This document shows, one piece after another, positions 14,638 through 56,191 of a stretch of 64,000 nucleotides of DNA (position 1 is the first letter of the stretch; each line of letters starts with the position of its first letter). A model generated the notes under the pieces. The model was not told the origin of the DNA, ran no database searches, and worked only from the letters and a program-made list of their open reading frames with translations. The stretch is from Bacteroidota bacterium (lineage in GTDB: Bacteria; Bacteroidota; Ignavibacteria; Ignavibacteriales; Melioribacteraceae): NCBI GenBank assembly GCA_018829205.1, contig JAHJUE010000014.1:78069-142068 (forward strand). Reading direction: 5' to 3'. The translations under genes and the position numbers were made by a program.

Positions 14638-14685
14638 CCAACCTGCCTTATGCGGGTGAAATGCTATTGCAATACGGAGGAAGTA

Positions 14686-33323: not shown

Positions 33324-33355
33324 AAGCCCGTTGATTTTCAGCGGGCTTTTTAATT
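33324..33355 (+). terminator. Rho-independent terminator AAGCCCG-N11-CGGGCTT followed by TTTTAATTTT
   Basis: 7-bp GC-rich stem plus a T-rich tail, 24 nt after the dcp stop. Confidence 0.65.
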
Positions 33356-33375: not shown

Positions 33376-33404
33376 TTGACATCAATATCCTGATTCTATA
33401 TATT
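33376..33404 (+). promoter_or_regulatory. Sigma-70-like promoter TTGACA-17 nt-TATATT
   Basis: Near-consensus -35 and -10 hexamers with 17-nt spacing, 34 nt upstream of the regulator ATG. Confidence 0.45.
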
Positions 33405-33410
33405 GCAAAC

Positions 33411-33428
33411 GTTTGGAAAATTTCAAAT
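33411..33428 (+). promoter_or_regulatory. Operator-like inverted repeat GTTTGGAA-AA-TTTCAAAT (site 1)
   Basis: Imperfect copy of the palindrome at 33961-33978. The shared extended context is AAACGTTTG(G)AAAATTTCAAA..AAAAACAT. It lies just downstream of the -10 hexamer of the regulator's own promoter. Confidence 0.5.
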
Positions 33429-33437
33429 ACTAAAAAC

Positions 33438-33920
33438 ATGACAGAAAAAGAAAAACTTCAAAATGAATTTATAATGAACTTCGGCCATGCTTATAAAGCA
33501 TTCGGCTTAAGCAAGTTGATGGGGCACGTTGTAGCTCTTCTAATCTATTCTTCTGAACCTGTTTCATTGGAAGATATTGCTAAATTACTTAATAGAAGTA
33601 AAGGCCCAATCAGTCAAATTACCCGCAGACTAAGGGATAAACATCTGATTCGAAGAGTTTGGCACCCCACAAGCAGAAAAGATTTTTATGAAATTGAGCC
33701 TGAAATTTTCGAGAATGCATTTCGAAATAATATTGATCTTATCAGGAACAACATGAAAATTGCAAAACATTTTCAAGTTGAAATAGCAAAACGTAAAATT
33801 GAAGATGCTGATTTATTAAAATCTAGACTCGTAGAGATGGAAAAGTTTTATGAACTAATGGATAAACATTATAAAAATTTTCTTGATGAATGGGAAATTG
33901 AAGAAAAGAAATTGAAATAG
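33438..33920 (+). CDS. GbsR/MarR-like winged-helix transcriptional regulator
   Basis: N-terminal wHTH pattern LSKLMGHVVALLIYSSEPVSLEDIAKLLNRSKGPISQITRRLRDKHLIRRV, then a helical C-terminal domain. This is family-level recognition only. Confidence 0.6.
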   Translation: MTEKEKLQNEFIMNFGHAYKAFGLSKLMGHVVALLIYSSEPVSLEDIAKLLNRSKGPISQITRRLRDKHLIRRVWHPTSRKDFYEIEPEIFENAFRNNIDLIRNNMKIAKHFQVEIAKRKIEDADLLKSRLVEMEKFYELMDKHYKNFLDEWEIEEKKLK

Positions 33921-33927
33921 AACAATA

Positions 33928-33951
33928 TGGCTTGTAAAGCCAAGTTTTTTT
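33928..33951 (+). terminator. Weak terminator TGGCTT-GTA-AAGCCA followed by AGTTTTTTT
   Basis: 6-bp stem and a 7-T run immediately after the regulator stop. Confidence 0.4.
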
Positions 33952-33960
33952 GTATTAAAC

Positions 33961-33978
33961 GTTTGAAAAATTTCAAAC
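33961..33978 (+). promoter_or_regulatory. Operator-like perfect inverted repeat GTTTGAAA-AA-TTTCAAAC (site 2)
   Basis: 8-bp perfect arms with a 2-nt spacer, 24 nt upstream of the fabG-like ATG. A second copy sits at 33411-33428. Confidence 0.55.
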
Positions 33979-34001
33979 GATAAAAACATTGAGAGAATAT
34001 T

Positions 34002-34745
34002 ATGAAAAGATTAGAAAACAAAGTAGCTGTAATTACTGGCGGCGCTCAGGGAATTGGAGCCGCTACTGTGGAAAAATTCCTAAACGAAGGAGCATCTGTT
34101 GCTGTATGGGATATTGATGTTTCTATTGGAGAAAAATTTGCAAACAAATTAAAAAATGAGGGTTTTAATGTCTCATTCTATCAAGTAGATGTTAGCAATT
34201 TTGAATCCGTTAGAACAAATGTTGAGAAAGTTATTTCTGAATTCGGAACAATTGATATTCTTGTTAATAATGCAGGGATTACCAGGGATGCGACTCTGAA
34301 AAAAATGACGCCCGAATTGTGGCAGCAGGTTATAAACGTAAATCTTACAGGGGTTTTTAACTGCTCTCAAATTATTTCTCAAATTATGATTGAAAAAGGA
34401 TATGGGAAAATCATTAACGCCTCTTCGGTTGTCGGTTTGTATGGAAATTTCGGGCAGACAAATTATGTAGCTACTAAATCAGGTGTGATTGGAATGACAA
34501 AGGTCTGGGCGCGTGAACTGGGCAGAAAGGGAATTAATGTAAACGCCGTTGCTCCGGGTTTCATTGCGACAGAAATGGTTAAAGCAATGCCCGAAAAAGT
34601 AATTCAAATGATGGAAGAAAAAACTCCGCTCGGAAGATTAGGCCAGCCTGAAGACATTGCAAATGCATACTTATTTTTGGCAAGCGAAGAAGCATCATTT
34701 ATAAACGGCGCTACATTAAGTGTTGACGGCGGTATTGTAATTTAA
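34002..34745 (+). CDS. fabG: Classical SDR, 3-oxoacyl-ACP (or acetoacetyl-CoA) reductase FabG/PhaB-like
   Basis: TGGAQGIGAA cofactor motif, NNAGI, catalytic S...YVATK. 247 aa. Confidence 0.8.
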   Translation: MKRLENKVAVITGGAQGIGAATVEKFLNEGASVAVWDIDVSIGEKFANKLKNEGFNVSFYQVDVSNFESVRTNVEKVISEFGTIDILVNNAGITRDATLKKMTPELWQQVINVNLTGVFNCSQIISQIMIEKGYGKIINASSVVGLYGNFGQTNYVATKSGVIGMTKVWARELGRKGINVNAVAPGFIATEMVKAMPEKVIQMMEEKTPLGRLGQPEDIANAYLFLASEEASFINGATLSVDGGIVI

Positions 34746-34755
34746 AAGGAATTCT

Positions 34756-35745
34756 ATGAGAAATGCTGTTATACATTCAACCGGAATTTACGTGCCGGAA
34801 AAAATCGTTAAAAATGATTTCTTCGATAAAATTTTAAACGAAAATGTAAGCACCTGGCTTGAAGAACATGTTCAGATTTTTGAAAGAAGATGGTGCAGCG
34901 AAAATGAATCTACATCGGATTTAGCCATTGCCGCCGCAAAAAATGCGATGGCAAAAGGTGGAGTTAATCCCGAAGATATTGATTTGTTAATTATCGCTAC
35001 CGATACACCCGAATATATCTCACCTTCTACATCTTCCAAAGTTCAATTCAAATTAAATTTGAAGAATGCGGGTACGTTTGATATAAATACCGCATGCGCA
35101 GGTTTTGTTACAGCGGTTGATACTGCGGTTAAATTTATTCGCGCGGACGAAAATTATAATACAGTTATGGTTATTGGCGCTTATGCTATGAGCAAGTATT
35201 TAAATATGCTCGATAAAAAAACCGTTAATTTATTTGCCGATGGCGCGGGATGCATGATTCTGAAATCTTCAGAAAATTCAGGAAACGGATATCTTGCGAG
35301 CAAGCTTATTACTAAAGGGGAATATTACGATTATATGGGAATTTATGCGGGTGGTACAAAACATCCGATAAACGAGAATGTAATTGCAGAAAAAACAAAT
35401 TTATTAACAATCGCGAAAAAATTTCCGCCTGAGTTAAATCCTAAAATATGGTCAGGCATGGCCGAAGATTTATCAAAAATGTCTGGAGTATCCTTAAATG
35501 ATGTAGCCCTATTTTTATTTACTCAAATTAATATAAATAGCATATGGGATACTATGGAAATTCTAAAGCAGCCAAAGGAAAAAACTCAAACCAGTATGCA
35601 TTATTACGGCTATACAGGATCCGCATGTATTCCTCTTGCTTTAGAAGACGCGATTAATAATAAAAAATTAAAAAAGGGCGATGTGTTTTTTATGATAGGT
35701 TCGGGCGGAGGATTATCATTCGCCGGAGCGGCTTTTAAATATTAA
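34756..35745 (+). CDS. KASIII (FabH)-like thiolase-fold protein that keeps the active-site Cys but lacks the canonical His and Asn
   Basis: FDINTACAGF (Cys114) and LFADGAGCMIL align with FabH. At the FabH PHQAN position the protein reads FTQIN (Thr256). At the GNTSAAS position it reads GYTGSAC (Tyr286). Confidence 0.75.
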   Translation: MRNAVIHSTGIYVPEKIVKNDFFDKILNENVSTWLEEHVQIFERRWCSENESTSDLAIAAAKNAMAKGGVNPEDIDLLIIATDTPEYISPSTSSKVQFKLNLKNAGTFDINTACAGFVTAVDTAVKFIRADENYNTVMVIGAYAMSKYLNMLDKKTVNLFADGAGCMILKSSENSGNGYLASKLITKGEYYDYMGIYAGGTKHPINENVIAEKTNLLTIAKKFPPELNPKIWSGMAEDLSKMSGVSLNDVALFLFTQININSIWDTMEILKQPKEKTQTSMHYYGYTGSACIPLALEDAINNKKLKKGDVFFMIGSGGGLSFAGAAFKY

Positions 35746-35764
35746 CTAATCAATTGTAAATATT

Positions 35765-37315
35765 ATGGCGACTGCAGAACAAATAATTGGTACCTGGTTT
35801 TTAATAATTACTTACGCCGCAATTATAATTTTTATTGTGGTTAAAGGGTCTATTAAAACAAAAAGCTTCAAAGATTATGCGGTCGGCAATATTAATTTCT
35901 CTCCTGTTTCTGTAGGTCTGTCTCTTGCCGCGTCAATGACCAGTGCCGCTACATTTGTCATAAATCCCGGTTTTATTGCAAATTACGGAATAAGCGGTTT
36001 TATTTCTTTCGGACTCGTTTTTCCATTAGGTTCTATGATCTCCCTTGTAGTACTAACAAAAAGTTTTCAGAAATACGGGCAGACAATAAAAGCATTAACT
36101 TTGGCGCAATGGATTGGGAAAAGATATGACAGTAAGGGTTATTCACTGCTTATGGCTTTTTTATCTTTACTTCTTATTACCTTTATAGTTTTAATAGTAG
36201 TAGCGTTAACAAAGGTTTTGTCTAAATCATTAAATATTAATGAGATTTATGTTTTAGCAAGCATTGTGATTTTTGTTTTCGGTTATATGATGTTCGGCGG
36301 CGCTAACTCAATGGTTTATACGAATACTGTTCAGGCAATTATTATGATTGTCGTAGCTGTAATTCTGCTTACATCAGGTTATCAGCATTTTAGTCAAGGA
36401 ATCTCTACTTTCTTCGATAATCTAACTGAAATTGATCCTGATTTAACAAAGATTACTAATGTTAACAGTCCGCTTTTTAGAGATATATTTGAAATTTTTA
36501 TTGCTCAATTTATTATTGGTATTGCTGTTGTTTGCCAGCCGCACATTATTACCAAATCACTTTTATTAAAAAGCGGCAAAGACGTTAATAAATTTTTAAT
36601 TGTTAGCGTTGCAGCTGAAGTATTATTCTTTTTGGTTGTATTAACAGGTTTATACGCCAGGCTAACATTTCCTGATCTGACAGTCAACGGAATTGGGTTA
36701 AAGAATGACGGTATTGTCTCGGCTTATGTTGTTCAAATATTTTCCGACGGTAAAATTGCTGTTGCTGTTGGTCTTTTGGTTATTCTAGGATTAATTTCTG
36801 CCGGGATGTCAACATTAGAAGGATTAATTCAATCGGTATCATCTTCAATTACGTCAGATATTATTCAGCCTCTTTTTGGTCACAGACTTAAAAACGAAAA
36901 CTCACTTATTACAGTTAACAGGGTTGTAATTTCTCTGCTCGCATTAATTTCTTTCATAATATCTTATGATCAGTTAATAAACCCGAAACTCAGTGTTGGA
37001 ATATTTGCGCAGAACGGAGTATACGCTTTTTTCTCAGCGGCTTTTATTCCTATACTTTTCGGCATCTTTATTAAAGATGTTAAATTAAAAGCTCCCTTGT
37101 ATGCAACATTGACAGCTTTATTTACGCATTTCTCAGTTTATTATATAATGCCTTTGTTTGTTTCGGAATTTGGTTTCTCATTCGGAGTTTTTACAAAATA
37201 TCTTGTCGGGGATGTCCGTAATCCTGCCATAGCTTCTTCTTGTGCGATTGTAATTTCTACCTTGGTTGGTCTTCTAATCCATTTTAAAGAGAAAAATAAA
37301 TCAGGGAAAAATTAA
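35765..37315 (+). CDS. Sodium:solute symporter family (SSF) transporter, substrate unknown
   Basis: About 13 predicted TM helices with an SSF-like layout. Embedded between the KASIII-like and ligase genes with gaps of 1-20 nt. Confidence 0.7.
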   Translation: MATAEQIIGTWFLIITYAAIIIFIVVKGSIKTKSFKDYAVGNINFSPVSVGLSLAASMTSAATFVINPGFIANYGISGFISFGLVFPLGSMISLVVLTKSFQKYGQTIKALTLAQWIGKRYDSKGYSLLMAFLSLLLITFIVLIVVALTKVLSKSLNINEIYVLASIVIFVFGYMMFGGANSMVYTNTVQAIIMIVVAVILLTSGYQHFSQGISTFFDNLTEIDPDLTKITNVNSPLFRDIFEIFIAQFIIGIAVVCQPHIITKSLLLKSGKDVNKFLIVSVAAEVLFFLVVLTGLYARLTFPDLTVNGIGLKNDGIVSAYVVQIFSDGKIAVAVGLLVILGLISAGMSTLEGLIQSVSSSITSDIIQPLFGHRLKNENSLITVNRVVISLLALISFIISYDQLINPKLSVGIFAQNGVYAFFSAAFIPILFGIFIKDVKLKAPLYATLTALFTHFSVYYIMPLFVSEFGFSFGVFTKYLVGDVRNPAIASSCAIVISTLVGLLIHFKEKNKSGKN

Positions 37316-37316
37316 A

Positions 37317-38831
37317 ATGCAGGTATTCGATTGGTTCGGTAAATGGGGAATTTATTCAAAAGATAAAACAGCGTTCAAAGAATTTGAAACCGGAAGAACA
37401 TTTACTTATAAAAAAGTAAATGTTCTCGCATCGGCGCTTAGTAAATATTTTAAAGATAATATGAATCTTAAAAAAGGAGATCGCGTATCGGTACTGGCTG
37501 AAAATTCTATTGAATATATAATATTGTTTGGTGTGGCTCAAAAACTTGGAATTACTTTAGTACCTCTAAATTACAGATTAACCTCAAGCGAACTTGATTT
37601 TATTATCTCCGATGCCGGCTGCATGTTAATAATATCAGAAGAAAAATTCGCAAATAAAATAACAACTTTGGATTGTTATCAAAATATCAAATTCAAATTA
37701 TTACTGGAAGAATTAAAATCCATACTGGCCGGATTTGAAAGTGAAGAATTTGACGGTGAATTTAATAATGACAATCAAACTGAAGAAATAACTGAAGATG
37801 ACGCCGCATTTATCTTATATACGTCAGGCACAACGGCATTTCCAAAAGGTGCTGTATATACTCATAAAATGCTGTTTTATAACAGTATAAATACCGAGTT
37901 GAGACTTGATTTAACATCTTCCGACCGATCAATAAATAGCGCGCCGTCATTCCATACAGGGAGCTGGAATGTGCTTATGACGCCCTTTATTCATCATGGC
38001 GCATTTACTCTTTTAATGAAAAGTTTTAATCCTGAATTGATGCTGAAAGCATTGGATGAAGAAAAAATAACTATCTGGTGGGCTGTTCCGACAATGCTTA
38101 AAATGATGTCCGATTCTGAAATGTTTGAAAAAGTTGAGCTTAAGAATTTAAGATATCTTGTTGTAGGCGGCGAAGCTATGCCTATTGACCTGATTGAAAA
38201 ATGGCACAGCAAAGGTGTTTTAATACGCCAGGGTTACGGATTAACTGAAGTAGGACCAAACGTTACTTCTCTTAATCATCAGGACGCAATAAGAAAACAA
38301 GGCTCAATTGGCACTCCGAACTTTTATTACAATACAAAGATTGTCGACGCCGATGAAAAAGAGATTGTTAATGAAGGAGTCGGAGAACTCGCATTAAAAG
38401 GCCCGACGGTTACTCCGGGTTATTGGAAGAATGATGTTGCTACAAAGGAATCAATTAAAAACGGATGGTTTTTTACCGGTGATATTGTAAGGCGTGATAA
38501 AGAAGGTTTCTTGTTTGTTGTCGATAGAATAAAAAATATGTATATCTCAGGGGGAGAAAATGTTTACCCGGCCGAAGTTGAGCATGTCTTATTAAACCAT
38601 CCGAAAATTAAAGACGCGGCAATAATAGGAATACCTGATGAAAAATGGGGCGAAACTGGCAAAGCGTTTATTGTGAAGAATGAATTATCAGATTTAAAAG
38701 AAGAGGACATAATAAATTATTGTGTTGAAAGATTGGCTAAGTATAAGGTTCCGAAACATATAAGATTTTTAACGTCGCTCCCGACTAACGATGCCGGAAA
38801 AATTGACAGAAAAAAACTAAAAGAGCTTTAA
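37317..38831 (+). CDS. AMP-dependent synthetase/ligase (acyl-CoA synthetase family, ANL superfamily)
   Basis: AMP-binding motif LYTSGTTAFPKG, YGLTE, TGD, and C-terminal GKIDRKKL. Confidence 0.85.
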   Translation: MQVFDWFGKWGIYSKDKTAFKEFETGRTFTYKKVNVLASALSKYFKDNMNLKKGDRVSVLAENSIEYIILFGVAQKLGITLVPLNYRLTSSELDFIISDAGCMLIISEEKFANKITTLDCYQNIKFKLLLEELKSILAGFESEEFDGEFNNDNQTEEITEDDAAFILYTSGTTAFPKGAVYTHKMLFYNSINTELRLDLTSSDRSINSAPSFHTGSWNVLMTPFIHHGAFTLLMKSFNPELMLKALDEEKITIWWAVPTMLKMMSDSEMFEKVELKNLRYLVVGGEAMPIDLIEKWHSKGVLIRQGYGLTEVGPNVTSLNHQDAIRKQGSIGTPNFYYNTKIVDADEKEIVNEGVGELALKGPTVTPGYWKNDVATKESIKNGWFFTGDIVRRDKEGFLFVVDRIKNMYISGGENVYPAEVEHVLLNHPKIKDAAIIGIPDEKWGETGKAFIVKNELSDLKEEDIINYCVERLAKYKVPKHIRFLTSLPTNDAGKIDRKKLKEL

Positions 38832-39859
38832 TGACAATGTCCGATAATCCAAACATAGGAATTGTTTCGACAGGCATATATTTGCCCGAAAATAAAATCA
38901 CCGCCGAAGAAATCGCGCTTCAAACAAAAGGAATATGGGAAGCTGAAGCGGTAAAATCAAAATTAGGAATTATTGAAAAAACGATTCCCGGTCCCAACGA
39001 CGGAACTCAAATGATGGGTGTACACGCTTCATTTGATGCGTTGCGCAACGGTAATATTAATCCGGATGAAATTGATTTGATCATTAATATCGGTGAAGAA
39101 TGGAAGGAATATCCGTTGACCACTTCAGGTATTTTTCTTCAGGAAAAAATAAATGCCGTAAACGCCTGGGCAATAGATTTTCAGCAGAGATGCTGTACTA
39201 CTATCTCAGCAATGAAAATCGCAAAGGATATGATGATCTCGGACGAATCAATTAATACAGTTTTAATAGCCGGTGGATATAGAAACGGCGACTTTGTCGA
39301 TTACTCGGATAAAGATTTATCCATGATGTTTAACCTGGGAGCAGGCGGAGGAGCAATAATATTAAAGAAAAATTTTAATAAAAATTTACTTCTTGGATCT
39401 CATGTTATTACCGACGGAAGTCTTTCGCGTGATGTCGGCGTAAAATACGGCGGTACTGAAATTCCTATTACTAAGGAGAATGTAGATAAGGCATATAAAT
39501 CATTAACTGTTTTTAACCCGGGGCATATGAAAAGCAGGTTAAATGAAGTATCAATGAATAACTGGATGATATGCATTAATAAAGCGTTTGAAAAAAGCGG
39601 TATTGATAAAAATAAACTGGGATATCTGGCAGTCCTGCATTTTAAATATTCAATGTATCTGCATATGCTTGAACTTCTGGGTTTAAGCGTAGATCAATCA
39701 ATATACCTTAATAAGATAGGTCACGTTGGGCAGATTGATCAAATAATATCATTACATATGGCTTTGGAACAGAATAAAATACAAAACGGAACTATAATAG
39801 CAATGATAGCTGCAGGCATAGGATATGCATGGGCAGCAAACGTTATTAAATGGGGCTAA
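38831..39859 (+). CDS. Second KASIII-like thiolase-fold protein with a Cys-His-His arrangement
   Basis: AIDFQQRCCTT (Cys121) and FNLGAGGGAIIL align with FabH. LHFKY (His270) sits at the HQAN position and GHVGQ (His298) at the GNTSA position. The start overlaps the ligase stop (TAATG), consistent with translational coupling. Confidence 0.7.
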   Translation: MTMSDNPNIGIVSTGIYLPENKITAEEIALQTKGIWEAEAVKSKLGIIEKTIPGPNDGTQMMGVHASFDALRNGNINPDEIDLIINIGEEWKEYPLTTSGIFLQEKINAVNAWAIDFQQRCCTTISAMKIAKDMMISDESINTVLIAGGYRNGDFVDYSDKDLSMMFNLGAGGGAIILKKNFNKNLLLGSHVITDGSLSRDVGVKYGGTEIPITKENVDKAYKSLTVFNPGHMKSRLNEVSMNNWMICINKAFEKSGIDKNKLGYLAVLHFKYSMYLHMLELLGLSVDQSIYLNKIGHVGQIDQIISLHMALEQNKIQNGTIIAMIAAGIGYAWAANVIKWG

Positions 39860-39890
39860 ATTAAACTAACTTAATTCAAGGAGTACCAAA

Positions 39891-40385
39891 ATGAAAAAAA
39901 TTATTTCTCTATCGGTAGCTGTACTGTTATCAGTTACATTTTTTGCTTGCAGCAGTTCGGACGATAATCCTGTTGATGCTGTTGAGGTAGATGCATGGGT
40001 CGGTACATGGTTAAGCGCCGGAACAGATGTTGCGCCGATACTTGTATCACTATTTAAGTACGATAGTGTAAAAGTGCAATTCAAAGAAGATTTAACTGTA
40101 AGTCTGCAGACACATGTAAAAGACGGGGCTTGGTCAACTCTTCCTGGAGTATTTACTATTACTAAATCTGAGACCGGCGATGTTCATTCTATTAACATTA
40201 ATTATTCGGCATTTGAACAGGGCGGAATTATACAGGTAATTCCGGGTACTCAAGCAAAATTAAAATTAGAAGTCGTTCAAACTGTTCCGAATATCGGTGC
40301 GGTTCCTAGAACCCCGGCTACCGGTTTCGGTTCAGATGCCGCGTTAGGCACTCTTAATATTCAAAACTATGTGAAAATTAATTAA
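39891..40385 (+). CDS. Small lipoprotein of unknown function
   Basis: Lipobox VTFFACSSSDD after a signal peptide. RBS AAGGAG upstream. No recognised domain. Confidence 0.5.
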   Translation: MKKIISLSVAVLLSVTFFACSSSDDNPVDAVEVDAWVGTWLSAGTDVAPILVSLFKYDSVKVQFKEDLTVSLQTHVKDGAWSTLPGVFTITKSETGDVHSININYSAFEQGGIIQVIPGTQAKLKLEVVQTVPNIGAVPRTPATGFGSDAALGTLNIQNYVKIN

Positions 40386-40399
40386 TTATTCTCTCTGAA

Positions 40400-40430
40400 A
40401 GGAAGAAGTTTTTTACTTCTTCCTTTTATT
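40400..40430 (+). terminator. Rho-independent terminator AGGAAGAAGT-TTTTT-ACTTCTTCCT followed by TTTATT
   Basis: 10-bp perfect stem, 5-nt loop and a T-rich tail, 15 nt after the lipoprotein stop. Confidence 0.65.
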
Positions 40431-40463
40431 CAGACCTTTATTAAAAATAATATAGGTACAAAA

Positions 40464-41999
40464 ATGAAGCGGATTATACCATTTGTGTTTTTTGTTTTTT
40501 CTTTGGGAATAAACCTATTGGCTCAAACCGGTGGAGATTTTCCCGAAGAAAAAATAAAAGAAGATAAAAATGAATTTAAATTTATTGGGTATTATTATAT
40601 GAGATCCGAGATTTCAAATACATACCCTACAAACGAGTTTTTGAAAGGTCAGATTGTCGGACGCCTTTTTGGCGGCAATACAACAAAAACAGGAAGTGAT
40701 TCACGCTTTACCGAACAAAGATTTATTCCGATTATCGCGTATACACCCAGGCTTTTCGACGGGTGGGCAACAATGCGTATGTCGTTTGAATTTGACTGGA
40801 CATGGGGTGACGCAAATTACGGAGCTGGCGGAAATTTCGGCGGTGCTTTTGGAGCCGATTTTGTAAATATGCAGACTCAGAATTTATTTATTGAATTCAG
40901 ACCGCAGAGAAATTTATTTATTAACGCGGGACTAACACGAATATTTGATAATATAAGGGTACCTGCTTATACTTTTACCGATGACCTTATTACAACAGGA
41001 TATAGACTTGCTATTTGGGGATCCGACGGTACCGGCGTTGCGGGACATTATTATCTAAATGATCAGAGATTTAAATTCGGCGCTTATCAATTATATGAAA
41101 ATAATGTAGATCAAAATGATGATGTTTCTTTATTCGAACTGGATTATGAATATGATTTCGATATAAAAAACTCTGCCGGTCTTACTCTTTATTATTTAAG
41201 AGACAGAGGTAATGCAGAAGGCGGAGTTTCAATTCTTGGACAGGGGTTAAATTCAGGTTTAAGCAATTATAACGGTGTATTTAATTTTAATTTCGGGAAT
41301 AATGATTATACAGCCGACATTATTTGGCTGGGAACTCATTTCCACGGGGATCCTTTGCTAAAGCAGGGGAGATTCGGATACAGCGGATTCGTTATTTCAA
41401 ATTTTGGTAACGCCAAAACCGAAATTCAATCGGTAGACATTTTCGGTCTAGCCGCCAATTTAAGATTAGCATATAAATACGGCAAAAATACTAATGATTA
41501 TGTTTCTGCCGACGGTGTTTTTTCAACGGGAGACGATAATAATATTTCTGACGGAAAATACAGCGGCGTATTAACGGGAAATAACTGGACTGCTCCCGGT
41601 GCGGTTTTCTTTAGTCATGGATTATATCTTTTACTTCCTCACGGCAATGTTGTAAACAGATTTACCGGCGCGGTAATCGATATTCAGAATATCGGTTACG
41701 GGTTAATGGCCGGATCGCTAACAGGTTCATACGATATAATTCCTAATAAATTAAAAATAAAATCTTCTTTGGGTATCGGTGCTTCTCCCGTAACTCCAGC
41801 CGGAGGAGGTAGCTTAATCGGAACCGAATTTAATTTCAATCTCCTTTATAAATTAAGAGTATTTATGGATCTCGAACTTCACGCGGCTTACTTAAAACTC
41901 GGCGATTTTTACGACTCACAAGCCGTTAACGGTGGAATTCCTGTTAGACCCGATGATCCTTGGGTACTGTTTGCTTCATTAAAATGGATAATGTTCTAG
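40464..41999 (+). CDS. Outer-membrane beta-barrel protein of unknown family (porin/export-channel-like)
   Basis: Signal peptide, Gly/aromatic-rich alternating strands, C-terminal residue F (KWIMF). Confidence 0.5.
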   Translation: MKRIIPFVFFVFSLGINLLAQTGGDFPEEKIKEDKNEFKFIGYYYMRSEISNTYPTNEFLKGQIVGRLFGGNTTKTGSDSRFTEQRFIPIIAYTPRLFDGWATMRMSFEFDWTWGDANYGAGGNFGGAFGADFVNMQTQNLFIEFRPQRNLFINAGLTRIFDNIRVPAYTFTDDLITTGYRLAIWGSDGTGVAGHYYLNDQRFKFGAYQLYENNVDQNDDVSLFELDYEYDFDIKNSAGLTLYYLRDRGNAEGGVSILGQGLNSGLSNYNGVFNFNFGNNDYTADIIWLGTHFHGDPLLKQGRFGYSGFVISNFGNAKTEIQSVDIFGLAANLRLAYKYGKNTNDYVSADGVFSTGDDNNISDGKYSGVLTGNNWTAPGAVFFSHGLYLLLPHGNVVNRFTGAVIDIQNIGYGLMAGSLTGSYDIIPNKLKIKSSLGIGASPVTPAGGGSLIGTEFNFNLLYKLRVFMDLELHAAYLKLGDFYDSQAVNGGIPVRPDDPWVLFASLKWIMF

Positions 42000-42008
42000 G
42001 AGGCTGAA

Positions 42009-42956
42009 ATGAAAAAATATATTTATTTATTATCAATAATCGCGGCTATTATGCTAAACAGTTGTGCAACTTCATATTATTATAACCTCCCTTCAAAAGA
42101 GTTTGAAGAGATTGATTATAAATTCGATATAAATAAAGTTAAGGTTAAAAACATAACCGTAGCTTTTATTGACGAAGGCAAAAGCGATAATGTTCTGTTA
42201 TTAATACACGGACTAGGAACAAACGCAAAAAGCTGGATTAAAAATATTCCTTTCTTGTCAAAACATTTTAGAGTAATAGCCGTTGATTTACCGGGATACG
42301 GAAAATCCGATAAGGGATATTATCAATACTCAATGTCATTTTACTCCGAAGTATTAACTGAGTTATTAACCGAACTGAAAATTAAAAAAGCAACCTTTGT
42401 CGGCCATTCGATGGGTGCGCAGATATCATTAATGACCGCTTTAAAATATCCTCAATATGTTGATAAACTTGTTTTAATATCTCCGGCGGGATTCGAAAAA
42501 TTTACCGAAGGAGAAGGCGACTGGATGAAGTCTGCTTTTACAGTTGAGCTTGTTAAAGAAACTACAACTAGAAATATTGACGTTAACTTAAGAGCAAATT
42601 TTTATAAAACTCCCGATGAAGCGGCATTTTTTGTAACGGATAGAATTCAAATCAAAGGAGCTAAAGATTTTGAGGATTACTGTTATGCTGTTACTAGAAA
42701 TGTTGCCGGTATGATAAACGAACCTTTGCTCAATGAGCTTAAAAATATTAAGCATGAGACTTTAATATTATTCGGCGAAAACGACGGACTTATTCCAAAT
42801 CCTTATTTGCATGGCGGAAATACTGTTGACATCGCGAACTTTGCCCAATCCCAATTGGAAAATTCAAAATTAATTCTAATACCGGAATGCGGACATATGC
42901 TTCCGTTTGAAAAGGCAGATGAAGCGAATAATGCTATAGTTGAATTTATGAAATAG
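42009..42956 (+). CDS. Alpha/beta-fold hydrolase, lipoprotein-like N-terminus
   Basis: HGLGTN oxyanion region, nucleophile elbow GHSMGA, C-terminal CGHM His motif. N-terminal LNSCATS lipobox. Confidence 0.8.
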   Translation: MKKYIYLLSIIAAIMLNSCATSYYYNLPSKEFEEIDYKFDINKVKVKNITVAFIDEGKSDNVLLLIHGLGTNAKSWIKNIPFLSKHFRVIAVDLPGYGKSDKGYYQYSMSFYSEVLTELLTELKIKKATFVGHSMGAQISLMTALKYPQYVDKLVLISPAGFEKFTEGEGDWMKSAFTVELVKETTTRNIDVNLRANFYKTPDEAAFFVTDRIQIKGAKDFEDYCYAVTRNVAGMINEPLLNELKNIKHETLILFGENDGLIPNPYLHGGNTVDIANFAQSQLENSKLILIPECGHMLPFEKADEANNAIVEFMK

Positions 42957-42972
42957 AAATCAAGGAAATAAA

Positions 42973-44160
42973 ATGCCAGAACTTAAAGAGGTTTACATTA
43001 TTGACGCCGTAAGAACTCCAATAGGGTCCTTTATGGGAGCATTAAGCGGCGTACCTGCTGTTAATTTAGGAAGCATTGTTATCAAAGCTCTTCTTGAAAG
43101 AAACAAACTTTCCGGTAATGAAGTAGGCGAAGTTATAATGGGAAACGTAATACAAGCCGGGGAAGGGCAGGCTCCTGCCCGGCAAGCGGCTTTAGGCGCG
43201 GGAATTGATAATAGCGTTCCATGTATGACAATCAACAAAGTTTGCGGTTCAGGATTAAAATCAGTAATGCTTTCCGCACAGTCAATTATGACCGGTGATT
43301 CCGACATTGTTATTGCTGGCGGAATGGAAAATATGTCCCAGATACCTTTTATTCTTAAAAATGCGCGCGGCGGATTTAAAATGGGGAATCAGACTATTGA
43401 AGACGCTATGCTTTCCGACGGATTAATTGATGCATACGATAATGTTCATATGGGAAATTTTGCGGAATTATGCGCCGAAGAATATAATATTACCAGGGAT
43501 GAACAGGATAATTTCGCGATTGATAGCTATAAGAAAGCCTTAAAAGCAATTGATGAAAATACTTTTGAAGAAGAAATTATACCGGTTGAAATAAAAAGCA
43601 GAAAAGGTGAAATCATGATTATAAAAAATGATGAAGAACCAGGGAAAGTAAATTTTGATAAAGTTAAAACTCTTAAACCGGCATTTAAAAAAGACGGAAC
43701 AGTTACTGCGGCTAATGCCTCTTCAATAAATGACGGTGCTTCGGCTCTTTTATTAATGAGTAAAGAAAAAGCAGATTTACTTGGCTTGAAACCTATAGCC
43801 AAAATAGTTGCTCAAGCTCAGGCTTCAAAAGATCCTAAATGGTTTACCACCGCGCCTGTCGACGCTATTAAAATAGTACTTGAAAAGTCAGGCCTAAATA
43901 AAAATCATATTGATCTGTTCGAAATTAACGAAGCATTTTCGGTTGTTTCATTAATTGTAAATAAGCAATTGGGTCTGGATATTTCTAAAGTAAATATATA
44001 CGGCGGTGCGGTAGCGCTTGGTCATCCCATTGGAGCAAGCGGAGCAAGAATTTTAACAACCCTTCTGCATGGATTAAAAAGAAATAATTTAAAATTCGGA
44101 TTAGCTTCGTTATGCATTGGCGGAGGTGAAGCGGTTGCCGTAATCGTAGAAAGATGTTAA
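42973..44160 (+). CDS. Acetyl-CoA C-acetyltransferase (thiolase II)
   Basis: NKVCGSGLK active-site Cys, NEAFS, GHPIGASG, C-terminal CIGGGEAVA. Confidence 0.9.
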   Translation: MPELKEVYIIDAVRTPIGSFMGALSGVPAVNLGSIVIKALLERNKLSGNEVGEVIMGNVIQAGEGQAPARQAALGAGIDNSVPCMTINKVCGSGLKSVMLSAQSIMTGDSDIVIAGGMENMSQIPFILKNARGGFKMGNQTIEDAMLSDGLIDAYDNVHMGNFAELCAEEYNITRDEQDNFAIDSYKKALKAIDENTFEEEIIPVEIKSRKGEIMIIKNDEEPGKVNFDKVKTLKPAFKKDGTVTAANASSINDGASALLLMSKEKADLLGLKPIAKIVAQAQASKDPKWFTTAPVDAIKIVLEKSGLNKNHIDLFEINEAFSVVSLIVNKQLGLDISKVNIYGGAVALGHPIGASGARILTTLLHGLKRNNLKFGLASLCIGGGEAVAVIVERC

Positions 44161-44190: not shown

Positions 44191-44220
44191 AAAGGGTTCA
44201 TATATGAACCCTTTCTTTTT
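44191..44220 (+). terminator. Rho-independent terminator AAAGGGTTCATA/TATGAACCCTTT followed by CTTTTT
   Basis: Perfect 24-nt palindrome with a T tail, 30 nt after the thiolase stop. Confidence 0.7.
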
Positions 44221-50856: not shown

Positions 50857-52596
50857 TTAATGAGTTAAAGAAATATTTAACCTTTTCATTTTCCTCCATA
50901 AAGTAGAAGGATTAATTCTTAATTCATTCGCCGCTTTTGCACGGTTCCAATTATTCTTTTCCAAAACTGAAATTATCAAATCTTTTTCAGCGTCTTTAAA
51001 ACTTAATTTCGATTTCGAAGCGGTTATATCAGAGTTCACTTCGTTCTTTTCTCTTAATCTTTTGGGAAGACAATCAACTTGTATAATATCATTATTGCAT
51101 AAAATAAAACAATGTTCTATTACATTTTCCAATTCGCGTATATTGCCGGGCCAATCGTATTCCATTAGTATATCATAAGCGGGTGATGAAAATTGTTTTA
51201 TCTTTTTGTTAAACTTTTTATTGAACTCTTTAATAAAATGTGTTACTAACAAAGGAAGATCATCTTTTCTTTCTCTAAGCGGCGGCAAATTAATATTTAT
51301 TACGTTTATTCTGTAAAATAAATCTTCTCTAAACCTTCCCGAGGATATTTCATTTTCGAGATTTTTATTAGTAGCGGCGATTATCCTTGCGTCCATTTTA
51401 TATGTTTTATTTCCACCGACTCTCTCAAACTCCCGCGTTTCTAAAACTCGCAAAAGTTTTGTTTGAACTGCGGCGGAAAGGTCTCCAATTTCATCCATAA
51501 ATAATGTTCCGCCTTGCGCAAGTTCAAATTTTCCAATTTTGGTTTTAATTGCCCCTGTAAATGATCCTTTTTCATGCCCGAAAAGTTCGCTTTCAATAAG
51601 CGATTCAACGAAGGCGCTGCAATTAACTGTTATAAAAGGGCCGGGTTTTCTCGGACTATTAATATGAATTGCCCGTGCCGCAAGTTCCTTTCCTGTTCCG
51701 CTTTCGCCTGTAACCAATACTGAGCTATCTGTTTGCGCTACGCTTTCAAGGACTGAAATAATTTGTTTGATCTCTTTGTTTCTTCCAACAATGTTTTCAT
51801 ACTTAAAAAACTCGTTTAAATGAGCGGACAAATTTCTGATCTCGGATATATCAATAAACGTTTCGACTGCACCAATGTTCTCATTTTTGTTATTTAAAAG
51901 TATCCCGGAGTTTACGCGTATCGGAATGATTTTTCCTCCTTTATGAACTATTTCAAGTTCATTGCCTATCATAGGTTTTCCTTTTTGAAGCGTCTGTTCC
52001 ATGTGGCATCCGTTACGGCATAAAGATGAGTTGAAAATATTCCAGCATTTTTTACCTAATGCTTCGTTTCTTTTGTATCCTGTTATTTTTTCGGCAGATG
52101 TATTAAAAGAAGTTATATTCCACTCATTATCAATCGTAAAAGTTCCTTCAATATTGCTGTTGAAGATAGCGTCAAGTTTATTCTTCTGATCTATTAATTC
52201 TAAAGTTTTCTCTTCAAGCTCATCGGATAAATTCAGCATTTCTTTTGTATCCCGGAAAACAAAAACTACGCTTAATACATTCTTATCCTTAGTTATTGGA
52301 GTTATTGAAACAAGCACATTTTTAACAATTCCTTTTTTATCGATAATATTTATTGAAAGATTTGTAAATACCCGGTTGTTTTCAAGCGACTCGATTATAA
52401 AATTAATATCACCGGCGCTTCCGCCGAATAAAAGGGAAGCGTCAGCGCCGATAATCTCATCCTCGGCATATCCGCTGATTCTCGAAGCGGCTTCGTTAAA
52501 AACTATAATTTTTAAGTCCTTTCCTATAACTGCTATCCCGTCCGGGATTATTACCGCTTCCTTATTTTTATCAAAAATCTGCTGAACTTCTTTCAT
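50857..52596 (-). CDS. Sigma-54-dependent transcriptional activator with two PAS domains, an AAA+ domain and a Fis-type HTH
   Basis: Two PAS-like repeats ([18 protein letters not shown]; [18 protein letters not shown], followed by a Cys-rich [15 protein letters not shown]). [35 protein letters not shown]-terminal [27 protein letters not shown] at 52596 (MKEVQQ) preferred over the track start at 52659. Confidence 0.9.
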
Positions 52597-52789
52597 ATTA
52601 TTTCCTTTTAAAGTATTGCAAAAATATATAAAACATTGCATATCTGCAACAAGCCGCAATGAATATTGCGTAATTGCAAATTATATTTTATTAAGAAGCT
52701 TCTAAATAAGGCAAAAAAGCATTATTTATTCTGGAATGATTCTGGACTATTAATAGAAATTATACAATTCCTAATGGAGACCATTATAT

Positions 52790-54758: not shown

Positions 54759-55152
54759 CAGATACCTTTCAGTATTTCTTTGGCTTGTTGCGTTTCATTC
54801 TTTATGCGTGGGCGTTGGATTAATTGTTGTCCCATGCTCATTTATGCAGGACCTTGGTTACGGGATTTGTTCGGAAAGATTTTTCCGATCACAAGGGGGT
54901 GTATTTCATATTGTTATGGCTGTAGGATACTCAATGGCTGCATTCAATTCAAAACGGTTTGAGTGCCTCGTCATTTTTTCAGTAATCGTTAAATTTATCG
55001 CCGCTGTTTTTCTTTTCTATTATTACTTCATAATTAATCCATTAATTGTAATAATACTTTCCTGTGTTTCGGATTTAATAATGGGTGCTGCAATTCTATC
55101 TCTTTACTTGCTTTCAAAAAAAACAGAACAAAATTGGATAAAGAATGAATAA
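54739..55152 (+). CDS. Small integral membrane protein (about 4 TM helices), unknown function
   Basis: Hydrophobic helices. The ORF overlaps both neighbours (20 nt and 8 nt), consistent with co-translation in an operon. Confidence 0.5.
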   Translation: MKNFNFSRYLSVFLWLVAFHSLCVGVGLIVVPCSFMQDLGYGICSERFFRSQGGVFHIVMAVGYSMAAFNSKRFECLVIFSVIVKFIAAVFLFYYYFIINPLIVIILSCVSDLIMGAAILSLYLLSKKTEQNWIKNE

Positions 55153-56191
55153 TAAACTTCCATCTATTGTAATTACCGGAGCAAGCGGCTTTGTTGGGCG
55201 TTTTCTTCTGGAAAATGTAAGAGAAGAATTTAAAGTGTACGCTATTGCCCGGCGGTCAAGAAAAGAATCAAACATTCCGTACCACAAAAATATCCATTGG
55301 ATTCAATGTGATATCGCCAATAAGGATACGTTAAACGATGTCAAAAATTATATCAATGAAAATGGCGGCGCGGATTACTTGGTTCACCTTGCGGCTTTTT
55401 ATGATTTTACTTACATGGATAATAACGAATACAAGCGCACGAATATTGAGGGAACGTTAAACGTTCTAAAATTTGCAAAAGAATTAAATGTGAAAAGATT
55501 CATTTTTGCCAGTTCATTAGCTGCATGTAATTTCCCGGCCGACGGTGAAAAAATTTCCGAGACAACAAATCCGGAAGCTGAGTTTGCATATGCAAAAAGC
55601 AAAAGAATAGGTGAACAATATGTAAAGGAGTATTCAAAATATTTTCCTTGTTCCGTTGTTAGATTTGCAGCTATTTACAGTGATTGGTGCGAATACGCCC
55701 CGCTTTATAAATTTCTTTCAATTTGGCTTTCAAAAAAAATCGATTCACGACTTCTTGCGGGGAAAGGAGAATCGGCTGTTCCTTATATTCATGTGCAAGA
55801 TGTTATTTCACTAATTCGTATCATAATTAAAAACTCAAATAATCTTACTCAATTCAGCATGTATAACGGAAGCCCGGACGGCTCTGTTTCTCACAAGGAA
55901 CTATTTCTAATTTCAACGGCTTATTTCTTTGGGAAAAAGATAAACCCGGTTTTCATTCCCAAGTCCCTAACTTATCCGGGCTTATTTCTAAAGATGCTTT
56001 TAAAATACTCTCATCTCGTATGCGATGAGCCTCTTGAAAAATTCTGGATGATAAAATATATTGATAAAAAATTAGACGTTGATTCCAGCTTTACTCGTAA
56101 AGAATTGGCATGGGAACCCGCCCCCCGATACCATATTACAAGAAGACTTCTTTTTCTGCTTGAAAAAATTAAAAGTCATCCCGACGAATAG
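55145..56191 (+). CDS. NAD(P)-dependent epimerase/dehydratase-family (extended SDR) protein, ending at a TAG in frame with the next ORF
   Basis: Rossmann motif ITGASGFVGRFL and catalytic YAKSK. The stop TAG at 56189-56191 is followed by 37 sense codons in the same frame leading into the 56303 ORF. Confidence 0.8.
   Translation: MNNKLPSIVITGASGFVGRFLLENVREEFKVYAIARRSRKESNIPYHKNIHWIQCDIANKDTLNDVKNYINENGGADYLVHLAAFYDFTYMDNNEYKRTNIEGTLNVLKFAKELNVKRFIFASSLAACNFPADGEKISETTNPEAEFAYAKSKRIGEQYVKEYSKYFPCSVVRFAAIYSDWCEYAPLYKFLSIWLSKKIDSRLLAGKGESAVPYIHVQDVISLIRIIIKNSNNLTQFSMYNGSPDGSVSHKELFLISTAYFFGKKINPVFIPKSLTYPGLFLKMLLKYSHLVCDEPLEKFWMIKYIDKKLDVDSSFTRKELAWEPAPRYHITRRLLFLLEKIKSHPDE

Follow-up and report, generated by a model that had tools for sequence, protein, structure and literature searches.

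Gene content and boundaries of the cluster

The DNA considered here is a 64,000-nucleotide stretch (the window) of the Bacteroidota assembly GCA_018829205.1 (Ignavibacteria, family Melioribacteraceae; contig JAHJUE010000014.1, positions 78,069 to 142,068), and positions in it are counted from its first letter. Between 33438 and 44160 lie ten open reading frames (ORFs), all on the + strand, which form one conserved operon in a low-GC (~35%) genome. In order, they encode a MarR/GbsR-like regulator (REG), a short-chain dehydrogenase/reductase (SDR), a first FabH-fold protein of the ketoacyl synthase III type (KAS-A), a sodium:solute symporter (SSF), an acyl-coenzyme A (CoA) ligase (LIG), a second and more divergent FabH-fold protein (KAS-B), a small lipoprotein (LIPO), an outer-membrane beta-barrel (OMB), a serine alpha/beta hydrolase (ABH), and a thiolase (THL). 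The ORF list reproduces the coordinates given in a first-pass annotation made by reading the sequence, and Pfam and NCBIfam profile searches back its domain calls.

Consecutive intergenic gaps across the ten genes measure 81, 10, 19, 1, -1, 31, 78, 9, and 16 nt. This agrees with the tight packing described in the first-pass annotation, as does the TAATG overlap that it placed near 38831: the LIG stop and KAS-B start codons share these letters at 38829-38833. The same annotation had set 40464-44160 apart as a second unit. That division does not hold, because strong intrinsic terminators flank only the whole unit, with none inside it, and LIPO-OMB-ABH always trail the KAS genes in diderm loci. 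The left terminator (33324..33348, + strand) lies 3' of an M3-peptidase gene and consists of an 11-bp stem, of which 6 pairs are GC, and a T-run behind it, while the right one (44191..44214, + strand), a 10-bp stem with a T-run, begins 31 nt past the THL stop codon. These two are the only strong intrinsic terminators in the region. A weak hairpin after REG (33928..33942, + strand; a 6-bp stem, then TTTTTTT) is a possible partial terminator. The neighbours on either side, GH3 and peptidase M3 genes upstream and FapA-like and CvfB genes downstream, are unrelated to the cluster. An Rfam scan of the window found no riboswitch or other RNA family.

Distribution and locus variants

The window proteins and their Firmicute neighbours were mapped onto 85 loci, all ORFs were clustered, and further loci were looked up; a locus is referred to as complete where KAS-B is flanked by 8 kb or more on each side, which holds for 43. 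No gene of the system is more conserved than KAS-B. Its product is 61-79% identical across Ignavibacteria, Bacteroidales, Bacillota (Tissierellia, Clostridia, and Bacillus-like genera), Izemoplasmatales, Bacteriovoracaceae, and Chlorobiota, and at least 470 species representatives encode a relative. Carriers are mostly anaerobes and come from anaerobic digesters and activated sludge, from sediments, and from the guts of animals or termites. The gene arrangement is far beyond chance, because the same order recurs in unrelated genomic contexts and 330 of the 334 genes matched in the complete loci are co-directional with KAS-B. The gene set has evidently been transferred horizontally.

Four locus types occur. 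Type 1, that of the window, reads (REG)-SDR-KASA-SSF-LIG-KASB-LIPO-OMB-ABH-(THL) and is also found in the cultured Salinivirga cyanobacteriivorans. Type 2, common in Bacteroidales, reads THL-SDR-SSF-COAT-KASA'-KASB-LIPO-OMB-ABH, where COAT is a CoA-transferase. Type 3, the Firmicute form, comprises a sigma-54 activator, an ATP-binding cassette (ABC) importer of the branched-chain type, one or more cytoplasmic hydrolases, KASB, COAT, SDR, and THL, sometimes with MaoC and a TER/FabV-like reductase; in its minimal form, the activator (an enhancer-binding protein, EBP), KASB, and COAT stand behind a sigma-54 promoter. Type 4, from Lentimicrobium and a Bacteroides metagenome-assembled genome (MAG), is type 1 minus KAS-B.

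A CoA-activating enzyme is encoded in 41 of the 43 complete loci (COAT tallied in 35 and LIG in 7; a split into 35 with COAT only, 6 with LIG only, and 1 with both is not reconciled with this total). An importer and a hydrolase each occur in 37, an SDR in 31, and a thiolase in 29. The envelope module of OMB and LIPO is present in 22, and KAS-A accompanies it in all 22. About 20 of the complete loci have KAS-B without KAS-A, an arrangement seen in Firmicutes, and loci L086-L088 have KAS-A without KAS-B, as occurs in Lentimicrobium and the Bacteroides MAG. Since either protein may be absent, an obligate KAS-A/KAS-B heterodimer like PqsBC or LstAB is unlikely.

Several clostridial loci (L051, L053, and L056; ~4.5-8.2 kb) carry an arginine deiminase operon directly upstream of the activator-KASB-COAT group, judged by N-terminal sequences to comprise arcA, ornithine transcarbamoylase, and carbamate kinase genes. 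Pyruvate:ferredoxin oxidoreductase and a flavodiiron protein are encoded downstream of the group in the same loci.

Regulation

REG (33438..33920, + strand) is a MarR/GbsR(CudC)-like winged-helix regulator of 160 residues and is present only in Ignavibacteria-type loci. It matches Pfam MarR at 1.5e-6 and the CudC-like NCBIfam model over its full length at 5e-10, with a score far under the cutoff. Upstream of it lies a putative sigma-70-type promoter, the near-consensus TTGACA-17-TATATT (33376..33404, + strand), which agrees with the consensus at 11 of 12 positions, more than any other site in the region, and is called on consensus match only.

Two copies of a 21-nt operator-like motif accompany the regulator gene. 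One, AAACGTTTGGAAAATTTCAAA, is located immediately 3' of the -10 box, upstream of REG (33407..33427, + strand), and the other, AAACGTTTGAAAAATTTCAAA, lies between REG and SDR, 25 nt 5' of the SDR start codon (33957..33977, + strand). Perfect copies of AAACGTTTGNAAANTTTCAAA number exactly two in the window, where 0.27 matches with up to three mismatches are expected by chance. The general form of the motif is AAACGTTTG[G/A]AAAATTTCAAA. Both positions are kept in all nine REG-containing loci, with the REG-SDR position conserved in L004, L006-L010, L012, L018, and L020, and the pair are candidate REG operators. A copy with three mismatches at 55459-55479, inside an NAD-dependent epimerase-like gene (55145-56191), probably reflects chance in AT-rich DNA.

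Firmicute loci with an activator carry canonical sigma-54 promoters of the form TGGCA[CT]-N5-TTGC[AT] in 24 of 25 cases, 25-100 nt upstream of genes; the opposite-strand control gave 1 match. These promoters precede the KAS-B, ABH, and ABC genes and, separately, the THL, SDR, MaoC, and chemoreceptor genes. Judged by these motifs, the Firmicute cluster looks like one sigma-54 regulon of nutrient-catabolic type, and since the promoters are shared, THL, SDR, and MaoC appear functionally tied to KAS-B and COAT. The papers on sigma-54 regulons that were consulted make no mention of these cluster genes. The chemoreceptor, a methyl-accepting chemotaxis protein of 274 residues with an MCPsignal domain only, is encoded inside the cluster behind its own sigma-54 promoter in Tissierellia (8099-8988 in L002/L003, and other Tissierellia loci), which suggests chemotaxis toward the pathway substrate.

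The window also encodes two sigma-54 EBPs, at 77-1129 and 50857-52659 (- strand), one of them with PAS domains. The TGGCA[CT]-N5-TTGC[AT] promoter occurs nowhere in the window, and the targets of these two proteins therefore lie elsewhere or have a divergent motif. Adjoining the Bacteroidales versions of the cluster (24 loci) is a gene for a conserved cytoplasmic protein of ~475 residues with weak tetratricopeptide repeat matches and no other family (L085 14709-16133; L091 7606-9030, - strand; L086 5020-6450; L088 2608-4110; L089 5203-6675). This protein may regulate those versions or act as their sensor; the window lacks it and has REG instead.

The two KAS III-fold proteins

KAS-A (34756..35745, + strand) contains the N- and C-terminal ACP_syn_III domains. 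Aligned to FabH structures, in which the triad is Cys112-His244-Asn274, it keeps the catalytic Cys (Cys114) and has Thr256 for His244 and Tyr286 for Asn274. It scores under the FabH cutoffs of NF006829 (238 vs 249) and TIGR00747 (217 vs 292). Its AlphaFold2 model (pLDDT 88) superposes on FabH with Foldseek template modelling (TM) scores of 0.88-0.91. The nucleophile Cys and the motifs FTQIN and YGYTGS are kept in ~96-98% of 47 family members, which include a Bacteroidales subtype at only ~35% identity.

Loss of His244 or Asn274 in FabH abolishes malonyl decarboxylation, not acyl-enzyme formation; mutants in either residue reportedly lose decarboxylation and keep transacylation. Because Thr and Tyr replace these two residues, KAS-A is very unlikely to act as a decarboxylating condensing enzyme.

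KAS-B (38831..39859, + strand) is a divergent member of the fold with Cys121, His270, and His298; alignment to 2ebd shows that Cys and His of the FabH triad are kept and that His replaces Asn274. It belongs to NF005308 (PRK06840; 442.7 bits vs a cutoff of 315, residues 7-342), an uncharacterised family named '3-oxoacyl-ACP synthase'. That name is probably wrong as a fatty-acid synthesis annotation. KAS-B scores 105 and 98 on the FabH models NF006829 and TIGR00747, and in the alignment it lacks the Arg249 residue with which FabH docks acyl carrier protein (ACP). Across 39 sequences from several phyla, the QQRCC motif, His270, His298, and the GEEWKEYPLTT loop do not vary, nor do an Arg next to the nucleophile and many aromatic residues. 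At the position of this loop, which is TTSAT in FabH, KAS-A has T-D83-T-P-E86 and KAS-B has E89-E90-W-K-E93, and the acidic residues are conserved in both families.

The AlphaFold2 model of KAS-B (pLDDT 77, pTM 0.82) has TM scores of 0.76-0.80 to FabH, BioZ, and OleA at 15-21% identity; in the separate comparisons, BioZ is the best match (0.80-0.83) and OleA scores ~0.7. Fold searches with both KAS models returned only FabH, BioZ, OleA, and PqsD and no closer characterised relative. HMG-CoA synthase is marked by Glu-Cys-His; its models match the N-terminal half of KAS-B only (NF003274, 9e-19, 67.6 bits vs a cutoff of 244), and that assignment was rejected. Glu89/90 of KAS-B may align with Glu79 of HMG-CoA synthase, a lead rather than a test.

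The first-pass annotation described the two proteins as aberrant KAS III-like enzymes that would not group with housekeeping FabH. Both statements are upheld: the FabH model scores fall below the curated cutoffs, the triads are Cys/Thr/Tyr and Cys/His/His, and a housekeeping FabH role is ruled out for either protein. Judged by alignment, the altered active sites are not random decay, because they are conserved family-wide across phyla.

CoA activation

LIG (37317..38831, + strand) is an ANL-family acyl-CoA ligase (AMP-binding, 1.8e-77, plus the C-terminal domain). Its best model is PRK06839 (449 bits, under cutoff), and its best PDB matches are FadD13 and feruloyl-CoA synthetase at ~305 bits. 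COAT, which fills the slot of LIG in 35 of the 43 complete loci, belongs to the 4-hydroxybutyrate/butyryl-CoA:acetate CoA-transferase clade, with 352 bits to 3gk7 (AbfT of C. aminobutyricum); its best named model is butyryl-CoA:acetate CoA-transferase. Because LIG and COAT are interchangeable, the ligase step appears to be plain CoA activation of a short acid, and the analogy to OleC, a beta-lactone synthetase, and to LstC falls away. In an Ignavibacteriales MAG, the ligase gene is split into ORFs of 294 and 155 residues (L004 8347-9850, on the same contig as L009), which represents either a pseudogene or a long-read assembly frameshift.

The nature of the activated acid bears on a malonate-type route, which appears improbable. 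Malonate, possibly substituted, would be converted to malonyl-CoA by LIG or COAT, KAS-B would condense it with acetyl-CoA to give acetoacetyl-CoA and CO2, and thiolase would yield two acetyl-CoA; with COAT, the result would be a CoA-recycling decarboxylation cycle like Frc/Oxc for oxalate or YgfH/YgfG. The minimal Firmicute EBP-KAS-B-COAT operon supplies what such a transferase/decarboxylase cycle needs. The Cys-His-His of KAS-B is the triad of decarboxylating KAS I/II enzymes, with the invariant Arg beside the nucleophile, and THL, SDR, MaoC, and TER would all act downstream of acetoacetyl-CoA. LIG equals MatB in length and scores 295 bits on the malonyl-CoA synthase model, yet this is under the cutoff and other ligase models fit it better. 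Nor does malonate account for the exported esterase, the barrel, and the lipoprotein, or for KAS-A, which lacks both decarboxylation residues, and the loci that have KAS-A only. With the CoA-transferase, moreover, the cycle would give no net thioester or ATP unless transport is electrogenic. The Frc/Oxc and YgfH/YgfG cycles could be matched by the invariant COAT plus KAS-B core, which could recycle CoA likewise; however, their second enzyme is a thiamine diphosphate or crotonase-type protein rather than one of thiolase fold, and decarboxylation here is hypothetical.

The dehydrogenase and the thiolase

SDR (34002..34745, + strand) is a classical 247-residue enzyme of FabG/PhaB-like fold (adh_short_C2, 1.8e-68). 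It scores 312.7 bits on the FabG model NF004198, above the cutoff of 296, and 276.6 bits on AcAcCoA_reduct, under cutoff. Asp at the end of beta-2 is the NAD(H) signature of classical SDRs, and FabG and PhaB are NADPH-dependent. In the window SDR, beta-2 ends with Asp (VAVWDID) at the place of TATS in E. coli FabG, and it closes in the same way in every SDR of the loci (WDID, WDMN, or ADIN). This residue predicts that the cluster SDRs use NAD(H) rather than NADPH, and a biosynthetic FabG/PhaB role is therefore disfavoured even though one FabG equivalog cutoff is passed.

THL (42973..44160, + strand) is a thiolase of the acetyl-CoA C-acetyl/acyltransferase type (Thiolase_N, 7e-101, plus Thiolase_C; 472.6 bits on TIGR01930 vs a cutoff of 240.6). 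Its best equivalog models are acetoacetyl-CoA thiolases, all under cutoff. In some Bacillus-type loci the set is extended by an (R)-hydratase (MaoC) and a TER/FabV-like enoyl-CoA reductase, and these point to C4 thioester metabolism. No ACP gene was found in any locus examined, and an ACP-dependent pathway is disfavoured. The NAD-type SDR, the lack of ACP, the acetoacetyl-CoA-type thiolase, and MaoC/TER together place the acetoacetyl-CoA/3-hydroxybutyryl-CoA node at the centre of the predicted pathway.

The same enzymes would also suit the use of short and perhaps branched fatty acids, once imported, for anabolism or reduction, in which activation is followed by KAS condensation and by reduction through SDR, with or without MaoC and TER. 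Such use would either supply primers for lipid synthesis or provide a fermentative electron sink, in which acids are elongated and COAT releases the product. Both KAS proteins have the FabH fold, SDR passes a FabG equivalog cutoff, some loci hold a full set of ketoacyl synthase, ketoreductase, dehydratase, and enoyl reductase, COAT is closest to butyryl-CoA:acetate CoA-transferase, and the ABC system has a binding protein like those for branched-chain amino acids; branched-chain fatty acids abound in the carrier phyla. This use is nevertheless given a low probability. KAS-A would be unable to decarboxylate malonyl units, there is no ACP gene, and the SDRs are of NAD type. The diderm loci lack dehydratase and enoyl reductase, the exported hydrolase and the thiolase would have no role, and KAS-B is only 15-21% identical to FabH and without Arg249.

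Envelope module, transport, and hydrolysis

SSF (35765..37315, + strand) is an inner-membrane importer (PF00474, 5.6e-34) whose best NCBIfam matches are PanF, PutP, and MctC, all under cutoff. Each transporter associated with the cluster is of an importer type: SSF in some loci, and in others an ABC system whose Peripla_BP_6 binding protein is of the branched-chain amino-acid type. The export of a lipid product considered in the first-pass annotation is accordingly disfavoured.

LIPO (39891..40385, + strand; lipobox ...FFAC) belongs to no family. In diderm loci its gene always follows KAS-B (or LIG) and precedes OMB, and the protein is longer, ~275 residues, in Bacteroidales. OMB (40464..41999, + strand) has a signal peptide and the C-terminal sequence ...WIMF, is 44-84% identical in 40 loci, and is a probable substrate channel. 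Its only Pfam match is a faint one to Alginate_exp (9e-4); permissive Pfam scans found nothing beyond it for OMB and no family for LIPO.

ABH (42009..42956, + strand) is a serine hydrolase (Abhydrolase_1, 2.9e-33) with a lipoprotein signal (lipobox LNSC) that predicts export. Hydrolases of diderm loci always have a lipobox and the Ser nucleophile motif GHSMG and are accompanied by the barrel and lipoprotein. Those of Firmicutes are cytoplasmic and 23-29% identical to ABH. One monoderm locus, the clostridial L033, has a secreted Lipase_2-like protein and SSF ahead of KAS-B-COAT. The pattern of an exported or cytoplasmic hydrolase together with an importer fits a substrate whose carboxyl must be freed by hydrolysis, externally or within the cell, before CoA activation.

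Several specific assignments of these hydrolases were rejected. ABH falls short of the polyhydroxyalkanoate (PHA) depolymerase models (NF050089, 88.8 bits vs 300; TIGR02240, 37.7 vs 250.6), and Firmicute hydrolases reach 93 and 111 bits on depolymerase models, below cutoff; all of this is generic alpha/beta-hydrolase similarity. The L033 lipase does not match the PhaZ7-type depolymerase of poly-3-hydroxybutyrate (PHB) and has weak LipA matches only. C-C hydrolases of the MhpC/BphD type are marked by an Asn before the nucleophile Ser and a Cys-Gly-His-Trp motif. ABH has GHSMG and CGHM, without the Asn-Ser and His-Trp hallmarks, and was not assigned to them. A phloroglucinol/triacetate route was set aside with the absence of these hallmarks, and because export of ABH conflicts with the cytoplasmic NADPH-dependent first step of that route. 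Hydroxycinnamate beta-oxidation was rejected for the diderm loci, which lack a hydratase.

The transporters also bear on a carnitine-like substrate, a C4 3-hydroxy acid with a charged 4-substituent. Such an acid would be activated, oxidised with NAD, and cleaved by a KAS protein with an acidic or aromatic pocket, with a MaoC/TER branch like CaiD/CaiA. REG is nearest to the GbsR/CudC regulators of the choline and betaine response, the COAT clade acts on 4-substituted butyrates, both KAS families have acidic loop residues, and KAS-B has invariant aromatics; many of the Firmicute carriers are amino-acid or betaine fermenters. However, REG resembles those regulators only weakly, nothing in this reading explains the exported esterase, and the loci examined contain no BCCT or OpuC transporter and no betaine-handling genes nearby. 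A carnitine-like substrate is thus highly improbable.

Proposed function

The function proposed for the operon is the scavenging, catabolic or assimilatory, of a small carboxylic acid that is ester- or lactone-blocked outside the cell. The proposal is a tentative one, held at somewhat less than an even chance. Of the possibilities raised in the first-pass annotation, import and activation of an exogenous carboxylate, combined with a thiolase/PhaB-like C4 route, best fits the comparative data. The blocked compound would enter the periplasm by way of OMB, LIPO acting as an accessory protein, and the lipoprotein hydrolase ABH would free the acid in the periplasm. SSF would then bring the acid in with Na+, and LIG would form its CoA thioester, a step that an acetyl-CoA-dependent CoA-transferase would perform in most other lineages. 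The NAD-type SDR and THL would process 3-hydroxyacyl- and 3-oxoacyl-CoA at the acetoacetyl-CoA node, by oxidation with NAD and then thiolysis, to acetyl-CoA, and REG would repress the unit through the two 21-nt operators.

The substrate is probably a short 3-hydroxy or 3-oxo acid, such as PHA-derived 3-hydroxybutyrate or 3-hydroxyvalerate or their oligomers. PHA-derived acids would be the most abundant natural candidates in the habitats of the carriers.

KAS-A and KAS-B would act on the CoA thioester through their conserved Cys. Because KAS-A lacks the His/Asn pair and both proteins have conserved acidic loop residues, their chemistry is expected to be non-decarboxylative: acyl transfer, or (retro-)Claisen or thiolytic cleavage, beyond that of an ordinary thiolase, of a pathway-specific intermediate. 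An attractive form of this idea would be CoA-dependent thiolytic cleavage of an oligomer-CoA, which would make an AMP-forming ligase affordable for fermenters. In its boldest form, KAS-A and KAS-B would be the first catabolic KAS III-fold enzymes, acting by retro-Claisen reaction or as CoA-dependent transacylases that split an ester or oligomer by thiolysis and thereby save the energy of its bond. This last suggestion is speculative and, on balance, doubtful.

Several points weigh against scavenging of such an acid. A simple 3-hydroxybutyrate or acetoacetate route requires neither KAS protein, as a canonical thiolase is already there, and the proposal leaves the roles of KAS-A and KAS-B speculative although KAS-B is the most conserved gene. 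The divergent, cytoplasmic hydrolases of Firmicutes may not be functional equivalents of ABH, and neither the depolymerase models nor the comparison of the L033 lipase with PhaZ7 singled out a PHA depolymerase. An AMP-forming ligase is energetically poor for fermentation of C4 acids in strict anaerobes. SDR passes the cutoff of one FabG equivalog, and the same enzymes run in reverse would amount to reductive chain elongation. Lastly, the identity of the substrate, the direction of flux, and the KAS reactions are inferred, whereas the analysis shows the structure of the operon, conservation of its modules, exchange of ligase for CoA-transferase, export of the hydrolase, the NAD type of the SDR, and membership of the Firmicute genes in a sigma-54 regulon.

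Comparison with known systems

The E. coli ato system (AtoSC, atoDAEB) likewise converts a short acid to acetyl-CoA by means of an importer, a CoA-transferase that depends on acetyl-CoA, and an acetoacetyl-CoA thiolase, under sigma-54/EBP control as in the Firmicute versions of the cluster. Operons of the ato or ketone-body kind place an importer, an enzyme of CoA activation, and such a thiolase under nutrient-responsive control, and the window agrees in having SSF, LIG, and THL in one operon with a putative repressor and its putative operators. The transporters differ, and in place of AtoDA the cluster has a CoA-transferase of the AcetylCoA_hydro/4-hydroxybutyrate type; in addition come one or two KAS III-fold proteins, hydrolases, an SDR, and the diderm outer-membrane module. 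The window version has a ligase and a MarR/GbsR-like repressor instead. PHB and ketone-body utilisation also begins with a serine hydrolase and proceeds through an NAD-dependent SDR and CoA activation to a thiolase, and the MaoC/PhaJ-like hydratase of some loci agrees with it. It differs in that no hydrolase of the cluster exceeds a PHA-depolymerase cutoff, the SDR resembles FabG/PhaB more than 3-hydroxybutyrate dehydrogenase, and the KAS proteins have no counterpart.

The leading analogy of the first-pass annotation was to OleABCD, to LstAB/NltAB, and to PqsA with PqsBC. Biosynthesis of this kind would join acyl chains by Claisen condensation, head-to-head or decarboxylative, on the KAS pair, followed by reduction and by lactone formation through the ligase or tailoring through the hydrolase, and a hydrocarbon, beta-lactone, or signal would be exported through the barrel. 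The same four superfamilies are present in OleABCD, LstABCD, and NltABCD (KAS III, ANL ligase, SDR, and alpha/beta hydrolase), and the fold search with KAS-B returned OleA among its neighbours. OleA shares the FabH fold and carries out a Claisen condensation without decarboxylation by means of a Glu base supplied in trans. By analogy, the acidic loop residues of KAS-A and KAS-B are possible counterparts of OleA Glu117 and may serve in a similar way.

The comparative data nonetheless largely refute this analogy, which is left with scarcely any probability. COAT replaces the ligase in most complete loci, the hydrolase is periplasmic by its lipobox whereas OleB is cytoplasmic, and the classical 247-residue SDR is not the OleD-type extended SDR (3-beta-HSD-like, ~330 residues). 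Neither KAS has the Cys-His-Asn of OleA, as the Asn is replaced in both, and each occurs alone in some loci. The transporters are importers only, and sigma-54 control in Firmicutes comes together with a chemoreceptor. The cluster spans at least five phyla and contains no tailoring genes. PqsBC with PqsA similarly presents a pair of divergent FabH-like proteins with incomplete triads and an adjoining acid-CoA ligase. However, PqsB lacks the Cys that both KAS proteins keep, PqsBC is an obligatory heterodimer, and there are no anthranilate or quinolone genes here.

In alpha-proteobacterial pimelate synthesis, a CaiB-type CoA-transferase feeds a carboxylated short acyl-CoA to BioZ, which shares the KAS III fold. 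BioZ differs in its Cys-His-Asn triad, its use of malonyl-ACP, and its location in bio operons, and neither bio nor ACP genes occur in the cluster. Assignments to biotin (BioZ/BioH/BioW) and menaquinone (MenE/MenH) synthesis were rejected, with no bio or men genes and scores below cutoff.

The cluster, the altered KAS pair, and their combination with an outer-membrane module were not found described in curated models or full-text literature. The statement of the first-pass annotation that the combination is not a described pathway stands, as no characterised system matched. The building blocks and the ato/ketone-body/PHB-like logic are familiar; the combination, the two altered KAS families, and the outer-membrane module appear to be new.

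Other features of the window

The upstream half of the window (1229-31086) holds a beta-glucan utilisation locus. Its enzymes are a GH5 with CBM6/35, a GH2, two GH16, and three GH3 (one with PA14 and one with CBM6), and several bear type IX secretion C-terminal sorting domains. The locus also encodes a TonB-dependent receptor, a PorV-like protein, an SSF sugar transporter, an MFS transporter, and a ROK kinase. Right after the TonB-dependent receptor gene, an ORF of 1042 residues (14650-17778) has no Pfam family at E<=1e-5 and may be a novel surface glycan-binding protein.

Significance

Identification of the substrate would give function to ~10 gene families, including the NCBIfam equivalog of KAS-B, and would bring to light a carbon flux in anaerobic communities, possibly storage-polyester turnover. 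The 21-nt operator, the sigma-54 promoters, and the binding proteins are handles for ligand discovery. The KAS families would broaden what is known of FabH-fold reactions, with a realistic chance of new chemistry. If they are catabolic, the cluster would represent an overlooked, widespread route by which anaerobes of sediments, digesters, and guts feed an ester-bound short acid into acetyl-CoA.

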